The translations under genes and the position numbers were made by a program. Source: Escherichia coli (lineage in GTDB: Bacteria; Pseudomonadota; Gammaproteobacteria; Enterobacterales; Enterobacteriaceae). From it: a stretch of DNA of 64,000 nucleotides. Positions 13,570 to 32,142 of this stretch are shown one piece after another (the first letter of the stretch is position 1; the number at the start of each line of letters is the position of its first letter). The notes beneath the pieces were generated by a model. That model was not told the DNA's origin. It saw nothing but the letters and a program-made list of their open reading frames with translations, and made no database searches. The DNA lies in assembly GCF_003334305.1 (NCBI RefSeq), contig NZ_QOWS01000002.1. One strand, 5' to 3'.

Positions 13570-13898
13570 AACTGCATAAAAAAATAGAGTCTGTCGACAT
13601 CCGCCAGACTCTACAGTACACACAGCAGTGCATCCGCGTCTTAAGTCCGGCATTGTCTCCTCTGCGCCGGTGACTGTGTTATAACGGTTTTAACCTTTAG
13701 TTGCCAATTTTCTTCAGTGACAGATTTCACGAAAATATAAGTTACATTATTAATATCGTGAATGAATAATCATGCATAAGCATTTTGCTTAAAATATCGG
13801 CAATATTTGGAACTTATTACTGGAATTTTGGGTAATACGTTGTTGGACCGACCCGGTCTGGTTATCATATCGCGCTCTTAATTGCGGGAGGATGTAAC

Positions 13899-16953: not shown

Positions 16954-17142
16954 CAAAAGCAATTTTTCCGGCTGTCTGTATACAAAAACGCCGCAAAGTT
17001 TGAGCGAAGTCAATAAACTCTCTACCCATTCAGGGCAATATCTCCATTGCAGGTGAATGCAACGTCAAGCGATGGGCGTTGCGCTCCATATTGTCTTACT
17101 TCCTTTTTTGAATTACTGCATAGCATAATTGATTCGTACGAC

Positions 17143-17170
17143 GCCGACTTTGATGAGTCGGCTTTTTTTT
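17143..17170 (+). terminator. Rho-independent terminator-like hairpin plus T8 run downstream of zntB
   Basis: GCCGACT...AGTCGGC stem followed by TTTTTTTT. Confidence 0.6.
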
Positions 17171-21752: not shown

Positions 21753-21979
21753 TGAATAAATCCTTTAGTTATTTTATTTGCCTTTTATCCCCATTCCGGG
21801 GAGTGAAAACATCCTAAAGGAGAAGTTCAGTTAGCCGATAAATATCATTTGTTACGCCTTAAGTAAAACCTTAATCAAATAATTCCTCTGAAATGATAAT
21901 AAGTCTGGTGAATGTATCGAAGATAATACATACAAAATAAAAATTATACTTTTAATTTTCTATACGTTATTCTGCGCGG

Positions 21980-22089
21980 GTTATATGCCTTTATTGTCAC
22001 AGATTTTATTTTCTGTTGGGCCATTGCATTGCCACTGATTTTCCAACATATAAAAAGACAAGCCCGAACAGTCGTCCGGGCTTTTTTTT
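21980..22089 (+). ncRNA. micC: MicC small RNA (Hfq-dependent regulator of ompC)
   Basis: GTTATATGCCTTTATTGTCACAG...GCCCGAACAGTCGTCCGGGC plus T9 matches MicC as I recall it; located between ompN and ydbK. Confidence 0.85.
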
Positions 22090-22118
22090 TAGAATTGGAT
22101 AATCCTTATCCAGAGCAT

Positions 22119-26712: not shown

Positions 26713-27702
26713 TTAAACCAGTTCGTTCGGGCAGGTTTCGCCTTTTTCCAGATTGCTTAAGTTTTGCAGCGTAGTCTGAGAAATACTGGTCAGAGCTTCT
26801 GCTGTCAGGAATGCCTGATGCCCGGTAAACAGCACGTTGTGGCAGGCAGACAGGCGACGGAATACGTCATCCTGAATTACGTCGTTGGATTTATCTTCAA
26901 AGAACAGATCGCGTTCGTTCTCATATACGTCCATACCCAACGAACCAATTTTCTGATTTTTCAGCGCTTCAATTGCCGCCTGAGAATCAATCAATGCACC
27001 GCGACTGGTATTGACGATCATCACGCCATTTTTCATCTGATCGAAGGCGGCTTCGTTCAACAGATGGTAGTTTTCCGGTGTCAGCGGGCAGTGCAGAGAG
27101 ATAACGTCTGATTCAGAGAACAGGGTTGGCAGATCGACATACTCCACACCGAGTTCCAGCGCCGCCGCACTTGGATACGGATCGAACGCCAGCAGACGCA
27201 TACCAAAACCTTTCAGAATGCGCAGCATCGCCACACCGATTTTACCGGTACCGATAACGCCTGCCGTTTTGCCATACATAGTAAAGCCGGTCAGACCTTC
27301 CAGAGAGAAGTTAGCGTCACGGGTACGCTGATACGCGCGGTGAATACGGCGGTTCAGCGTCATCATCATACCGATGGCGTGTTCAGCAACGGCCTCTGGA
27401 TCATAGGCTGGAACACGGACTACTTTCAGCCCCAGTTCTTTTGCCGCGTCAAGGTCGACGTTATTGAAACCGGCACAGCGCAGGGCGATATATTTAACGC
27501 CGTGCTTTTTCAGCTCTTCCAGCACCGGGCGGCTGCCGTCATCGTTTACGAAAATACATACCGCTTCGCAGCCATTGGCAGTTTTAGCGGTTTTTTCCGT
27601 CAGCAGAAAGTCAAAAAATTCCAGCTCAAAGCCAAAGGACTCGTTCACCTGTTGCAGGTACTTCTTGTCGTACTGTTTTGTGCTATAAACGGCGAGTTTC
27701 AT
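26713..27702 (-). CDS. ldhA: fermentative D-lactate dehydrogenase
   Basis: 329-aa ORF, 2-hydroxyacid dehydrogenase with GxGxxG NAD site. Confidence 0.95.
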   Translation of the reverse strand: MKLAVYSTKQYDKKYLQQVNESFGFELEFFDFLLTEKTAKTANGCEAVCIFVNDDGSRPVLEELKKHGVKYIALRCAGFNNVDLDAAKELGLKVVRVPAYDPEAVAEHAIGMMMTLNRRIHRAYQRTRDANFSLEGLTGFTMYGKTAGVIGTGKIGVAMLRILKGFGMRLLAFDPYPSAAALELGVEYVDLPTLFSESDVISLHCPLTPENYHLLNEAAFDQMKNGVMIVNTSRGALIDSQAAIEALKNQKIGSLGMDVYENERDLFFEDKSNDVIQDDVFRRLSACHNVLFTGHQAFLTAEALTSISQTTLQNLSNLEKGETCPNELV

Positions 27703-27909
27703 AAGACTTTCTCCAGTGATGTTGAATCACATTTAAGCTACTAAAAATATTTTACAAAATTTCAAATATAATTGAAAGCTATGGCGATATTGAAAAATTC
27801 ATCAACAACTATGCTTAGTGTAGGCGCAACCTTCAACTGAACGGTTAAACATGCCACAATACCCGTATTGAATGCTTAATTTTTCGCTAAATCAGGATAT
27901 TAACTACCC

Positions 27910-30549
27910 ATGCTGGGTAAATATAAAGCCGTTCTCGCGCTGTTATTACTGATTATTCTTGTGCCGTTGACGCTGCTGATGACGCTCGGGCTGTGGGTTC
28001 CCACGCTGGCGGGCATCTGGCTACCGCTCGGGACACGTATTGCATTAGATGAAAGCCCACGCATTACGCGTAAAGGTTTAATCATTCCCGATCTCCGTTA
28101 TCTGGTGGGAGATTGTCAGCTTGCGCATATCACCAACGCCAGCCTTTCACATCCCAGCCGCTGGTTATTGAACGTCGGCATGGTAGAACTTGATTCTGCT
28201 TGTCTGGCGAAATTGCCGCAGACGGAGCAATCGCCAGCTGCTCCAAAAACCCTCGCGCAGTGGCAGTCCATGCTGCCTAACACCTGGATCAATATCGATA
28301 AACTGATTTTTTCTCCCTGGCAGGAATGGCAGGGAAAACTCTCTCTCGCATTAACCTCTGATATCCAGCAACTGCGTTATCAGGGCGAAAAAGTTAAATT
28401 TCAAGGCCAGCTGAAAGGGCAACAACTTACAGTCAGCGAACTGGATGTCGTCGCGTTTGAAAATCAGCCGCCGGTTAAACTGGTGGGGGAATTTACTATG
28501 CCGCTCGTGCCGGATGGACTTCCTGTAAGTGGGCATGCTACTGCGACGTTAAACTTGCCGCAGGAACCGTCACTGGTGGATGCAGAGCTGGACTGGCAGG
28601 AAAATAGCGGGCAATTGATTGTGCTGGCACGGGATAACGGCGATCCGTTGCTCGATTTGCCGTGGCAAATTACTCGTCAACAATTGACCGTAAGCGATGG
28701 TCGCTGGAGCTGGCCGTATGCAGGTTTTCCTTTGAGTGGCCGACTGGGTGTCAAAGTCGACAACTGGCAGGCAGGGCTCGAGAACGCTCTGGTCAGCGGG
28801 CGACTGAGTGTGCTGACCCAGGGGCAAGCGGGTAAAGGCAACGCGGTGCTTAATTTTGGTCCAGGAAAATTAAGCATGGAAAAAAGTCAGATGCCACTGC
28901 AACTGACCGGTGAAGCGAAACAGGCGGACCTCATTTTATATGCCCGCTTACCCGCGCAGCTAAGTGGAAGTCTGACTGACCCAACGCTGGCCTTTGAGCC
29001 CGGCGCGTTATTACGTTCGAAGGGAAGAGTCATCGATTCGCTGGACATCGATGAAATCCGCTGGCCTTTAGCGGGTGTAAAAGTCACCCAACGTGGTGTT
29101 GACGGACGTTTGCAGGCCATTTTGCAGGCGCATGAAAATGAACTGGGCGATTTCGTGCTGCATATGGATGGGCTGGCGAATGATTTTCTCCCTGACGCTG
29201 GCCGCTGGCAGTGGCGCTACTGGGGAAAAGGCAGTTTTACACCGATGAATGCCACCTGGGATGTTGCAGGAAAAGGTGAGTGGCATGACAGCACGATTAC
29301 GCTGACCGATCTCTCCACCGGTTTCGACCAGTTACAATACGGTACGATGACGGTAGAAAAGCCGCGATTAATTCTCGACAAGCCCGTCGTCTGGGTACGT
29401 GACGCACAGCATCCCTCCTTCAGCGGCGCGCTGTCACTGGACGCCGGGCAAACGCTGTTCACTGGCGGCAGTGTGTTACCGCCATCAACCTTAAAATTTA
29501 GCGTCGATGGGCGCGATCCGACGTATTTCCTCTTTAAAGGCGATTTACATGCTGGTGAGATTGGCCCGGTTCGGGTAAATGGTCGCTGGGACGGTATTCG
29601 TCTGCGCGGTAACGCCTGGTGGCCAAAACAATCACTGACTGTATTCCAGCCGCTGGTGCCACCCGACTGGAAGATGAACTTACGCGATGGTGAACTGTAT
29701 GCTCAGGTTGCATTTTCTGCTGCGCCTGAACAAGGATTCCGCGCGGGAGGACACGGCGTGTTGAAAGGCGGTAGTGCCTGGATGCCAGATAATCAGGTTA
29801 ACGGTGTCGATTTTGTCCTGCCTTTCCGTTTTGCCGATGGAGCCTGGCATCTGGGGACTCGCGGCCCCGTTACGTTGCGAATTGCCGAAGTGATTAATCT
29901 GGTGACAGCGAAAAATATTACGGCTGATTTGCAAGGGCGTTATCCGTGGACTGAAGAAGAACCCTTGCTGTTGACTGATGTTAGCGTCGATGTGTTAGGC
30001 GGTAACGTACTGATGAAACAATTACGTATGCCGCAACATGACCCGGCGCTGTTGCGGCTGAATAATCTCTCATCCAGCGAACTGGTTAGCGCCGTCAATC
30101 CGAAACAATTCGCCATGTCCGGGGCATTTAGTGGTGCATTGCCGTTATGGCTAAACAACGAAAAATGGATAGTGAAAGATGGTTGGCTGGCAAATAGCGG
30201 GCCAATGACCTTGCGGCTGGATAAAGACACCGCAGATGCGGTGGTGAAAGACAATATGACTGCGGGTTCAGCAATTAACTGGTTGCGCTATATGGAAATT
30301 AGCCGGTCATCGACAAAAATTAACTTAGATAATCTCGGTTTATTAACCATGCAGGCCAACATTACAGGTACCAGTCGCGTTGATGGTAAAAGCGGTACGG
30401 TAAACCTTAATTACTATCATGAAGAGAATATTTTTACGCTGTGGCGCAGTTTACGCTTTGGCGATAATCTCCAGGCATGGTTGGAGCAGAACGCACGTCT
30501 GCCGGGAAATGACTGTCCGCAAGGAAAAGAGTGTGAGGAAAAACAATGA
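27910..30549 (+). CDS. ydbH: AsmA-family envelope protein YdbH
   Basis: 879-aa ORF, N-terminal TM anchor, beta-rich periplasmic body. Confidence 0.9.
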   Translation: MLGKYKAVLALLLLIILVPLTLLMTLGLWVPTLAGIWLPLGTRIALDESPRITRKGLIIPDLRYLVGDCQLAHITNASLSHPSRWLLNVGMVELDSACLAKLPQTEQSPAAPKTLAQWQSMLPNTWINIDKLIFSPWQEWQGKLSLALTSDIQQLRYQGEKVKFQGQLKGQQLTVSELDVVAFENQPPVKLVGEFTMPLVPDGLPVSGHATATLNLPQEPSLVDAELDWQENSGQLIVLARDNGDPLLDLPWQITRQQLTVSDGRWSWPYAGFPLSGRLGVKVDNWQAGLENALVSGRLSVLTQGQAGKGNAVLNFGPGKLSMEKSQMPLQLTGEAKQADLILYARLPAQLSGSLTDPTLAFEPGALLRSKGRVIDSLDIDEIRWPLAGVKVTQRGVDGRLQAILQAHENELGDFVLHMDGLANDFLPDAGRWQWRYWGKGSFTPMNATWDVAGKGEWHDSTITLTDLSTGFDQLQYGTMTVEKPRLILDKPVVWVRDAQHPSFSGALSLDAGQTLFTGGSVLPPSTLKFSVDGRDPTYFLFKGDLHAGEIGPVRVNGRWDGIRLRGNAWWPKQSLTVFQPLVPPDWKMNLRDGELYAQVAFSAAPEQGFRAGGHGVLKGGSAWMPDNQVNGVDFVLPFRFADGAWHLGTRGPVTLRIAEVINLVTAKNITADLQGRYPWTEEEPLLLTDVSVDVLGGNVLMKQLRMPQHDPALLRLNNLSSSELVSAVNPKQFAMSGAFSGALPLWLNNEKWIVKDGWLANSGPMTLRLDKDTADAVVKDNMTAGSAINWLRYMEISRSSTKINLDNLGLLTMQANITGTSRVDGKSGTVNLNYYHEENIFTLWRSLRFGDNLQAWLEQNARLPGNDCPQGKECEEKQ

Positions 30550-30731
30550 AAATTTTACTGGCTGCGTTGACGTCATCTTTTATGCTGGCTGCCTGTACGC
30601 CGCGTATTGAAGTCGCTGCGCCCAAGGAACCGATCACTATCAATATGAACGTTAAAATTGAGCATGAGATCATCATCAAGGCAGACAAAGATGTCGAAGA
30701 GCTGCTTGAAACTCGTAGCGATCTTTTCTGA
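30546..30731 (+). CDS. ynbE: small lipoprotein YnbE
   Basis: 61-aa ORF with lipobox (MLAAC); start overlaps ydbH stop by 4 nt. Confidence 0.8.
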   Translation: MKILLAALTSSFMLAACTPRIEVAAPKEPITINMNVKIEHEIIIKADKDVEELLETRSDLF

Positions 30732-30738
30732 GGCGATG

Positions 30739-31065
30739 ATGAAGAAAACATTACTTCTTTGTGCGTTTCTTGTTGGGCTGGTAAGCAGCAATGTAATGGC
30801 ATTGACTCTGGATGAAGCCAGAACTCAGGGGCGGGTAGGTGAAACATTTTATGGTTATCTGGTTGCGCTGAAAACGGATGCTGAAACAGAGAAATTAGTA
30901 ACCGACATTAATGCCGAACGTAAAGCGAGTTACCAACAACTGGCAAAGCAAAATAATGTGTCTGTAGATGATATCGCGAAACTCGCCGGGCAAAAGCTCG
31001 TAGCTCGGGCCAAACCGGGGGAATATGTACAAGGGATAAACGGTAAATGGGTGCGAAAATTTTAA
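30739..31065 (+). CDS. ydbL: periplasmic DUF1318 protein YdbL
   Basis: Track ORF 30658-31065; start trimmed to the ATG pair at 30736/30739 just after the ynbE stop; signal peptide. Confidence 0.75.
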   Translation: MKKTLLLCAFLVGLVSSNVMALTLDEARTQGRVGETFYGYLVALKTDAETEKLVTDINAERKASYQQLAKQNNVSVDDIAKLAGQKLVARAKPGEYVQGINGKWVRKF

Positions 31066-31236
31066 TAGCAAAACCGCAATATCGGGATAACGCTACAGGA
31101 GAAAGCGATTGATCTATTTTCCTGAAACAAGGTGAATATTCAAAAACTCCTGTCAAATTGCCTTTCGCCCTGAAAAATGCATAGTCAAATATCTGTTTTA
31201 ACTAATTGGCGTTGCAGTACACACAACGCCAATTAG

Positions 31237-32142
31237 TTAGCGGAATTTACGTCGATACTCGCCTGGCGTCATCCCAAAGCGTTGCTTAAATACCGTTGAA
31301 AAATGACTCTGGTCAGAAAATCCCCAATGAAAGCCGATGCCTGCCAGTTTTTCATCATCTGCGGCATGGCGAATCGCATCTGCACAAAAATCGAGACGAC
31401 GGTTACGAATATATTGCGCGACTACCAAACCTTTATCGGCAAACATTCGGTACAAACTACGTACTGACATACCTGTCTCTCCGGCTATCCACTCCGGGCG
31501 TAATATCTCTTCGCGAATATTATCGTCTATCAACGTAACCACTTTTTGAAACTGACGTTCACGACGAGGTTGAACAGATTCCCGCTGATGAAGTACCGGG
31601 CGCAGCAGACACACCATCGCCTGTAGCGCAGCTTCACTTTCTGTTTCAGAAAGTGCCGGATTATTCATGCTCTCCTGTAACAGGCGATGACTGAGTTGCA
31701 CCATGGGTAAGTCAGCGTCCAGTCTTTCTGCGCAGACAGGTTTTTGATGGGGAAAATATTGTTCCAGCAGAGTGCGTGGCAAAAGTAATGAAATCTGTTT
31801 AGAAGACTCCTGCCAGTAAAGCGAACAGGGGCGTGAGGCATCGAGTAACGTAATATCGCCAGCGCCAATCTGCACCTGACGCTCATCCTGCTCCATTATT
31901 GCCTGACCACTAAGCTGAAAAACGGTGTAAAACCAGGCATCGTCGCTGCCTTTTACCTCCTGCCAGGTGCGGGATAAATTCACCCCGCTGGTTGTCACGG
32001 TACTCAGCTTTAGTCCTTTGGCAAAATGCGTGTCCAGTACACCCGTGTAACGCTCAGTCAGCAGGCGTCCGGTAAAATTTCCGCATACCTGATTGATTTG
32101 GGAAAGCCATTGCTGAAACTCATTATCCATTGCGGGGTTCAT
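31237..32142 (-). CDS. feaR: AraC-family activator of feaB/tynA
   Basis: 301-aa ORF with C-terminal AraC HTH. Confidence 0.9.
   Translation of the reverse strand: MNPAMDNEFQQWLSQINQVCGNFTGRLLTERYTGVLDTHFAKGLKLSTVTTSGVNLSRTWQEVKGSDDAWFYTVFQLSGQAIMEQDERQVQIGAGDITLLDASRPCSLYWQESSKQISLLLPRTLLEQYFPHQKPVCAERLDADLPMVQLSHRLLQESMNNPALSETESEAALQAMVCLLRPVLHQRESVQPRRERQFQKVVTLIDDNIREEILRPEWIAGETGMSVRSLYRMFADKGLVVAQYIRNRRLDFCADAIRHAADDEKLAGIGFHWGFSDQSHFSTVFKQRFGMTPGEYRRKFR

Follow-up and report, generated by a model that had tools for sequence, protein, structure and literature searches.

The ydbH-ynbE-ydbL operon of Escherichia coli: translationally coupled genes for a probable YdbH-YnbE intermembrane bridge and its modulator YdbL

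Three envelope genes of Escherichia coli, ydbH, ynbE and ydbL, follow one another so closely that the start of the second overlaps the stop codon of the first and the third begins a few nucleotides beyond the end of the second. Does this arrangement build a complex of three proteins in fixed proportions, or does it serve another balance between their products? We considered this question for the copy of the operon carried by a 64,000-nucleotide stretch of E. coli DNA (contig NZ_QOWS01000002.1; hereafter the window, to which coordinates refer unless another locus is named), for which a preliminary description, made from the sequence alone, had deduced from the tight coupling a stoichiometric three-part complex. 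The locus is the ordinary and well-studied ydbH-ynbE-ydbL operon of E. coli: over region 27700-31300 its identity is 100% to strain A7 (NZ_CP028767.1) and 98.2% to K-12 MG1655, and 5418 of 5426 complete E. coli genomes carry the region, with 80% or more of its length in 5410/5426. Our overall reading, in which we have high confidence, is that YdbH together with YnbE makes an intermembrane bridge, that YdbL modulates it, and that the three genes are translationally coupled. All three genes lie where the preliminary description had placed them, and their assignment to NF007971, PF11739, PF13617 and PF07027 bears out the names it had given.

The first gene, ydbH (27910..30549, + strand), is an open reading frame (ORF) of 879 amino acids, annotated in RefSeq for the identical strain A7, and its product is an AsmA-like protein, probably with a repeating beta-groove, anchored in the inner membrane. 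YdbH belongs to the NCBIfam equivalog NF007971 (1396.5 bits over residues 1-878, against a cut-off of 824) and matches Pfam PF11739 over residues 14-862 (E = 2.4e-289). A simple Kyte-Doolittle hydropathy scan with 19-residue windows gave strongly hydrophobic windows only at starting residues 6-10 (means 2.7-2.95), which places a transmembrane anchor at about residues 7-28 (27928..27993, +), and the published topology likewise has an N-terminal inner-membrane helix (PMC11126948). A sequence search with YdbH returned no homologue with a solved structure; its C-terminal part, the last 210 residues, is predicted to fold into long beta-strands and a few helices, mostly with a predicted local distance difference test score (pLDDT) of 80-93. 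Deletions of tamB, yhdP and ydbH are synthetically lethal, with YdbH redundant with TamB and YhdP (Ruiz 2021, PMC8593681), and the link of AsmA-like proteins to lipid transport that had been drawn for this locus is right. A natural disruption was seen in E. coli SCPM-O-B-7615 (locus L004, 4211-5688), in which an IS1A element cuts ydbH after about 240 codons and the remainder of the operon is gone; this is compatible with dispensability of ydbH while TamB and YhdP are present.

Two samples of relatives were used for comparison. A genome scan, limited to one genome per species and built on a query alignment of 14 closer YdbH sequences, gave 80 loci, all from Enterobacteriaceae; a wider sample comprised the contigs of 11 full-length YdbH representatives of 26-49% identity, taken from an exhaustive search of 50%-cluster representatives, and gave 12 loci (L085-L096). 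The second gene, ynbE (30546..30731, +; an ORF annotated in RefSeq), encodes the 61-residue precursor of an outer-membrane lipoprotein and matches PF13617, 'YnbE-like lipoprotein', over the entire 34-position model (residues 26-59, E = 3.7e-16). The claim that YnbE is a lipoprotein holds: a regular-expression search found the lipobox L14-A15-A16-C17 (30585..30596, +; match at residue 14), which reads L-V-G-C in K-12, and its cysteine was unchanged in 23 of 23 aligned YnbE sequences. Under the Lol sorting rule, a threonine at position +2 of a lipoprotein directs it to the outer membrane. The +2 residue of YnbE is threonine, and the protein is therefore assigned to the outer membrane. Mature YnbE, CTPRIEVAAPKEPITINMNVKIEHEI-IK-DKDVE-LLK-RSDLF, is almost invariant in 78 Enterobacteriaceae loci, though YdbH identity drops to 62% among them. 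Over the 23 aligned sequences, distant loci included, C17, I32, N33, V36, H40 and I42 are invariant. The first of the two functional segments of YnbE is the beta-strand I30-I38 (30633..30659, +), which conservation and published cross-linking and proline disruption (PMC11126948) mark as probably augmenting the last strand of YdbH; H40 and I42 lie just past it. The second is the C-terminal helix and tail, K45-F61 (30678..30728, +), a predicted helix with published peptide binding to YdbL; in our alignment it is variable overall and conserved only where ydbL is present.

A small number of database proteins of 155-173 amino acids from metagenomes and assemblies (P0274-P0277) join PF13617 and PF07027, in the manner of a YnbE-YdbL fusion. 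We treat them, those of 172 amino acids included, as probable errors of assembly or gene calling: the two genes lie in different frames here, so a frameshift would be needed, and the cases come from single assemblies.

The third gene, ydbL (30739..31065, +), encodes a periplasmic DUF1318 protein of 108 amino acids, a chaperone-like modulator of YnbE. It matches PF07027 (E = 3.3e-31) and, over residues 22-108, the PDB entry 28oj, 'Probable chaperone-like protein YdbL' (E = 3.1e-52). The hydrophobic N-terminus forms a signal peptide of 21 residues (residues 1-21; 30739..30801, +) with cleavage after V-M-A (...NVMA/LTLDEA), and the crystallized chain of 28oj begins at residue 22. To judge from these features YdbL is a soluble periplasmic protein exported by a cleavable Sec signal peptide, as had been proposed. 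Its crystal structure has been determined at 2.1 Å (De'Ath 2026, bioRxiv 10.64898/2026.03.16.712125), and the YnbE C-terminal helix peptide E39-F61 binds it by nuclear magnetic resonance and native mass spectrometry (bioRxiv 10.64898/2026.03.16.712125).

The mechanism that we favour would join these parts as follows. YdbH, inserted in the inner membrane by its N-terminal helix, would span the periplasm with a long repeating beta-groove whose interior is hydrophobic. Lipidated YnbE, held in the outer membrane, would add its I30-I38 strand to the last strand of YdbH, and phospholipids would travel along the resulting bridge, redundantly with TamB-TamA and YhdP. YnbE would also polymerize with itself through the same strand that it uses for docking; periplasmic YdbL, bound to the C-terminal helix of YnbE, would limit this runaway multimerization and leave YnbE free to dock on YdbH. 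Termination-reinitiation at the two junctions, ATGA and TGAGG-N4-ATG, would couple the three genes and make the levels of YnbE and YdbL follow the level of YdbH. Much of this scheme has been established experimentally on the K-12 proteins: synthetic lethality, YdbH-YnbE cross-links, YnbE multimerization, binding of the YnbE peptide by YdbL, and coupling at the first junction. YnbE was cross-linked in vivo to the C-terminus of YdbH, AlphaFold-Multimer co-folded the three proteins at 1:1:1, YnbE multimerizes through the I30-I38 strand, and loss of YdbL raises YnbE multimers and lowers the level of YdbH (PMC11126948). The YdbH of Pseudomonas aeruginosa also requires YnbE (PMC12447247). Both checks that the preliminary description had suggested, co-folding of the three proteins (PMC11126948) and synthetic phenotypes with tamB and yhdP deletions (PMC8593681, PMC11126948), had thus already been published.

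We also modelled the interface as one fused chain, in which the C-terminal 210 residues of YdbH were joined by one linker to mature YnbE, and this by another to mature YdbL, with a paired alignment of 21 loci. The YdbH part had pLDDT values mostly of 80-93 and the YdbL part of 86-94. Within YnbE, DSSP assigned a strand at I30-K37 and a helix at 48-56, whereas in mature YnbE modelled alone the strand was missing and a helix at 48-58 was the sole element. The DSSP strand is the single feature of the fused model that bears on docking, and it hints weakly that YnbE docks onto YdbH; with similar reserve, the pair of models may reproduce the published contrast between monomer and complex.

Several points weigh against the bridge and its coupled modulator as we describe them. 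Direct biochemical proof of phospholipid transport by YdbH-YnbE is still lacking, and the modelled YdbH with one YnbE is about 180 Å long against a periplasm of roughly 250 Å (PMC11126948). In our fused model the YnbE segment had pLDDT below 50, and the model came with no contact output. A sigma-70 consensus scan found no site in the spacer between ldhA and ydbH, and no regional excess over shuffled sequences. Finally, coupling between ynbE and ydbL is deduced from junction geometry together with a remark in PMC11126948, and the stoichiometry and the movement of lipids itself are, like it, parts that we still infer.

What, then, do the junctions themselves suggest? The first is an ATGA (30546..30549, +) in which the start of ynbE (ATG, 30546-30548) overlaps the stop of ydbH, as the preliminary description had recognized, by 4 nt (...AAA CAA TGA). 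A Shine-Dalgarno (SD) sequence for ynbE, GAGGA (30535..30539, +), lies within the last ydbH codons, with a spacer of 5-6 nt and an anti-SD duplex of -6.2 kcal/mol. Either GAGGA or AAGGA stands at this position in almost every one of 78 related loci. Since the signal peptides vary in length, the ynbE starts of relatives were placed by lipobox anchoring, which gave distances from ydbH of -4 in 58 of these 78 Enterobacteriaceae loci, -1 in 16, -19 in three and +2 in one; the three calls at -19 are upstream in-frame ATGs, with an internal ATG at -4 in each. The ATGA overlap, the intragenic SD and coupling between ynbE and ydbL are all named explicitly in PMC11126948, and the native K-12 ydbH-ynbE junction was among the three E. 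coli cases in which termination-reinitiation was tested, measured with glpD/gusA reporters (Huber 2023, PMC10666635). The claim of translational coupling therefore stands in the literature, stated in the former study and, for the first junction, measured in the latter.

At the second junction GGCG ATG ATG comes directly after the ynbE stop (TGA, 30729-30731), so that the TGAGG at 30729..30733 (+) overlaps the stop with the SD of ydbL (GAGG; anti-SD duplex -5.6 kcal/mol), and TTCTGAGG is present here in most of 74 related loci. Two start codons are available. The ATG at 30736 lies 4 nt past the stop, gives 109 amino acids and is the RefSeq start in A7; the ATG at 30739 lies 7 nt past the stop, gives 108 amino acids and is the RefSeq start in K-12. 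The distance of 5 nt given in the preliminary description is correct in that the first base of the former ATG is the fifth base beyond the stop. We nevertheless consider 30739, one codon past the RefSeq call for this strain, the more likely start, because GAGG is spaced 5 nt from it (2 nt from 30736), because 51 of the 74 related loci, which come from other genera, have an ATG 7 nt after the ynbE stop as in K-12, and because the triplet equivalent to 30736 is often not ATG in those genera (e.g. GGTGACGATG). The residue numbering of YdbL in the literature (R28) fits the 108-residue form only, and mature YdbL is the same under either start once the signal peptide is removed. Both junctions thus have the conserved architecture of a coupled pair, the first an ATGA with an upstream intragenic SD and the second a TGAGG with a gap of 4 or 7 nt. 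Coupling that ties the synthesis of YnbE and YdbL to that of YdbH is our best reading of this arrangement, and is compatible with the sensitivity of the system to the ratio of YdbL to YnbE.

The alternative that survives best is that the overlaps reflect generic compaction of an operon, with a shared transcript but no specific role in setting ratios. Neighbouring bacterial genes on the same strand are most commonly joined by overlaps of -4 and -1 (PMC10666635), and several other adjacent gene pairs of the window share a few bases too. The spacing of ydbH and ynbE is not constant among distant relatives: most of these loci have the 4-nt overlap, and distances of 0, -8, -13, +111 and +1251 nt also occur. 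Moreover, when the stop codon is shifted to leave a 2-nt gap, just 5-70% of reinitiation is lost, with different losses for different gene pairs (PMC10666635). Against compaction stand a -4 or -1 overlap in 77 of 78 Enterobacteriaceae loci across such divergence of YdbH, and the conservation of both the intragenic SD in ydbH and the TGAGG of the second junction. Reinitiation at ydbH-ynbE is also strongly dependent on distance, falling by 80-90% or being abolished with a 38-nt gap (PMC10666635), and the system is demonstrably sensitive to the YdbL:YnbE ratio. We regard simple compaction as unlikely.

Does coupling then mean equal numbers of three subunits? Co-conservation speaks to this, as absence of the small genes beside ydbH would have told against a joint role. 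For ynbE the joint role was borne out: all 80 Enterobacteriaceae loci have it directly 3' of ydbH, and 10 of the 11 distant YdbH representatives have a PF13617 gene at their locus. At L089 ynbE was not detectable at the locus, and at L096 an opposite-strand gene of the Rnf-Nqr family is inserted between ydbH and ynbE. For ydbL it was borne out only in part. The gene was found in 74 of 80 Enterobacteriaceae loci, of which 79 were assessable (one locus is cut at its end), and was absent beside ynbE in 5/79; at the level of the locus, where an unlinked copy is possible, no ydbL-like gene occurred within 6 kb in Enterobacter sp. ENT03, Phytobacter massiliensis, two uncultured Enterobacteriaceae and Pseudescherichia vulneris. 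On the contigs of the 12 distant loci, unlinked copies again being possible, a DUF1318 gene was neither called nor detected with the hidden Markov model. A homologue search with YdbL was of no help in locating distant DUF1318 genes, as among the matches listed it gave only relatives of at least 70% identity. As far as these loci indicate, ynbE is very strongly co-conserved with ydbH, and ydbL is present in only part of the Enterobacteriaceae.

These data bear directly on a second alternative, that of the preliminary description, in which the three proteins form an obligate ternary machine of fixed 1:1:1 composition and coupling serves to supply equimolar subunits. It draws on AlphaFold-Multimer and MultiFold2 models that put YnbE and YdbL on the C-terminus of YdbH (PMC11126948; bioRxiv 10.64898/2026.03.16.712125), on the fall in YdbH when YdbL is lost, on the frequency with which overlapping gene pairs encode subunits of the same complex (PMC10666635), and on the 74 of 79 assessable loci that keep ydbL beside ynbE. 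Against this, ynbE is essential without TamB and YhdP but ydbL is not, the tamB yhdP mutant being viable without YdbL (Kumar, Davis & Ruiz 2024, PMC11126948) and killed by YdbL in excess (PMC11126948). YdbL at native levels is undetectable, and in vitro DegP degrades free YdbL and spares YdbL bound to YnbE (bioRxiv 10.64898/2026.03.16.712125). The bridge stoichiometry is explicitly described as not known; YnbE multimerizes, and the YdbH:YnbE ratio is therefore unsettled. Finally, ydbL is missing beside ynbE in five species of Enterobacteriaceae and in all 11 distant YdbH representatives, and the study of PA5307 and PA5306 in P. aeruginosa makes no mention of a YdbL (PMC12447247). A fixed three-subunit machine is thus quite improbable, and the inference of a stoichiometric complex claims too much. 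The functional unit is the obligate pair of YdbH and YnbE; YdbL acts on it as a modulator of low abundance that can be dispensed with.

That the two small ORFs are chance or untranslated sequences, as their size and the lack of an NCBIfam model for either (noise only, even at E = 10) might suggest, is virtually excluded by their matches to PF13617 and PF07027, a third-codon-position bias, a mature YnbE that is near-invariant across genera, the solved YdbL structure, and published YnbE-FLAG immunoblots, cross-links and deletion phenotypes. The bias is evident in a divergent allele from E. coli THO-010, in which 37 of 186 nt of ynbE differ, 30 of the 37 at third codon positions; only eight residues change, six of them in the signal peptide and none in residues 17-51. 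Given the Pfam matches, this bias, the constancy of mature YnbE and presence across E. coli genomes, ynbE and ydbL are real genes.

The distribution of ydbL also directed attention to the YnbE tail to which YdbL binds. The ...RSDLF end is kept in loci that bear ydbL and altered in four loci that do not: among the five ydbL-less loci (L039, L048, L049, L068 and L070), four YnbE tails read ...LLEQQEIKARE, ...LLERQNH, ...LLNERK and ...LLKEQK, as against ...LLKxRSDLF. From the alignment, these four look like losses of the YdbL-binding tail, and they seem to belong to one lineage, which would make them no more than one or two separate events. A stricter rule, by which loss of ydbL is always paired with loss of the tail, was refuted by L039 (...RSDLL) and by the distant locus L086 (...RSDLL plus an extension), neither of which has ydbL nearby.

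In Pasteurellaceae-type loci (L090, 2177-3001; also L091, L092, L094 and L095) a different neighbour was seen directly 5' of ydbH, a gene for a polytopic membrane protein of 267-274 amino acids belonging to PF27206 (HI_1241), which overlaps the ydbH start by 1 nt or lies 12-13 nt away; an NCBIfam search with this protein gave no match. This protein might be an inner-membrane partner of YdbH peculiar to that lineage, acting for example in lipid loading.

It is conceivable, though we would not favour it on balance, that YdbL is an add-on restricted to Enterobacteriaceae, which co-evolved with the ...RSDLF tail of YnbE and is not a core part of the machine, the coupled third gene of Pasteurellaceae-type loci being a different one. 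If this were true, coupling at the E. coli junctions would keep YdbL below YnbE rather than build a 1:1:1 complex.

Variation of ydbL was also apparent within E. coli. In THO-010 (locus L003) the last ~150 codons of ydbH together with ynbE and ydbL (about 30100-31065 of the window) form a divergent haplotype, with 54-92% identity per 100 nt as against ~99% upstream; homology stops at the ydbL stop codon, and an autotransporter gene stands in place of feaR. Many E. coli and E. albertii entries for YdbL have 107 amino acids and ~75% identity, and two allele classes therefore circulate.

The surroundings of the operon are the same in the RefSeq annotations of A7 and K-12, in the order hslJ (-), ldhA (-), ydbH (+), ynbE (+), ydbL (+), feaR (-) and feaB. 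The operon promoter presumably lies in the divergent ldhA-ydbH spacer (27703..27909, +), which is AT-rich and 207 nt long, with the ldhA start at 27702 (-). Consensus scans of the region for promoters and terminators returned nothing beyond the expectation from shuffled sequences. Between ydbL and the convergent feaR there is a perfect 16-bp inverted repeat (31199..31239; arms 31199-31214 and 31224-31239, 100% complementary), the right arm of which overlaps the feaR stop codon. As RNA, it would fold with -26.7 kcal/mol on the plus strand (z = -6.4) and -24.4 kcal/mol on the minus strand (z = -5.6). The hairpin is possibly a shared transcript end for ydbL and feaR; it has no U-tract and is not a textbook intrinsic terminator, and a role in termination is for that reason only putative. 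Rfam gave no RNA element inside the operon; its only matches in the window are three small RNAs elsewhere and unrelated to the operon, McaS (13576-13671, -), FnrS (17049-17166, +) and MicC (21977-22097, +), all full length and above the Rfam gathering scores.

How phospholipids are delivered to the outer membrane of Gram-negative bacteria was a long-standing question, and YdbH-YnbE is one of three redundant bridges thought to be responsible. The locus described here is already known in every respect that the preliminary description lists, from genetics through to the crystal structure. Our comparison makes small additions, namely that ydbL is patchy where ynbE is constant, that ydbL probably starts one codon downstream of its RefSeq start in this strain, and that Pasteurellaceae-type loci have a different neighbouring membrane gene. 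The preliminary description recognized genes and junctions correctly from raw sequence but read too much into their coupling, taking it to prove a complex of three subunits in fixed proportions.

The closest known system is the K-12 operon itself, which occupies the same locus between ldhA and feaR, with the same ATGA, the SD motifs in the same places and the 98.2% nucleotide identity given above. It differs only by alleles (10 of 879 residues in YdbH; two in YnbE, both in the signal peptide, including the lipobox LVGC for LAAC; and one in YdbL, with T55 here for A55) and by a RefSeq ydbL start that is one codon earlier in the window. In P. aeruginosa, PA5307 (ydbH) and PA5306 (ynbE) are likewise adjacent and YnbE is needed for YdbH function when both TamB and YhdP are missing, although that YdbH has diverged greatly (24% identity along one sixth of its length) and no YdbL is mentioned (PMC12447247). 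TamB-TamA and YhdP share with YdbH an inner-membrane-anchored repeating beta-groove and redundancy for an essential outer-membrane lipid function (PMC8593681, PMC11126948). TamB, like YdbH, needs an outer-membrane partner, in its case an Omp85 beta-barrel, whereas YhdP apparently needs none; YdbH differs from both in being shorter and in using a 45-residue lipoprotein that adds one strand, together with a dedicated periplasmic modulator (PMC11126948). The Lpt bridge (LptC-LptA-LptD) resembles YdbH-YnbE as a transenvelope bridge of beta-strands joined edge to edge, in whose hydrophobic groove acyl chains are shielded (PMC11126948); Lpt belongs to the beta-jellyroll family and is ATP-driven and one-directional, and the likeness is offered as analogy only. 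YdbL and YnbE have a counterpart in CsgC and CsgA of the curli system, in which a small periplasmic protein similarly curbs the premature amyloid-like polymerization of its partner (PMC11126948).

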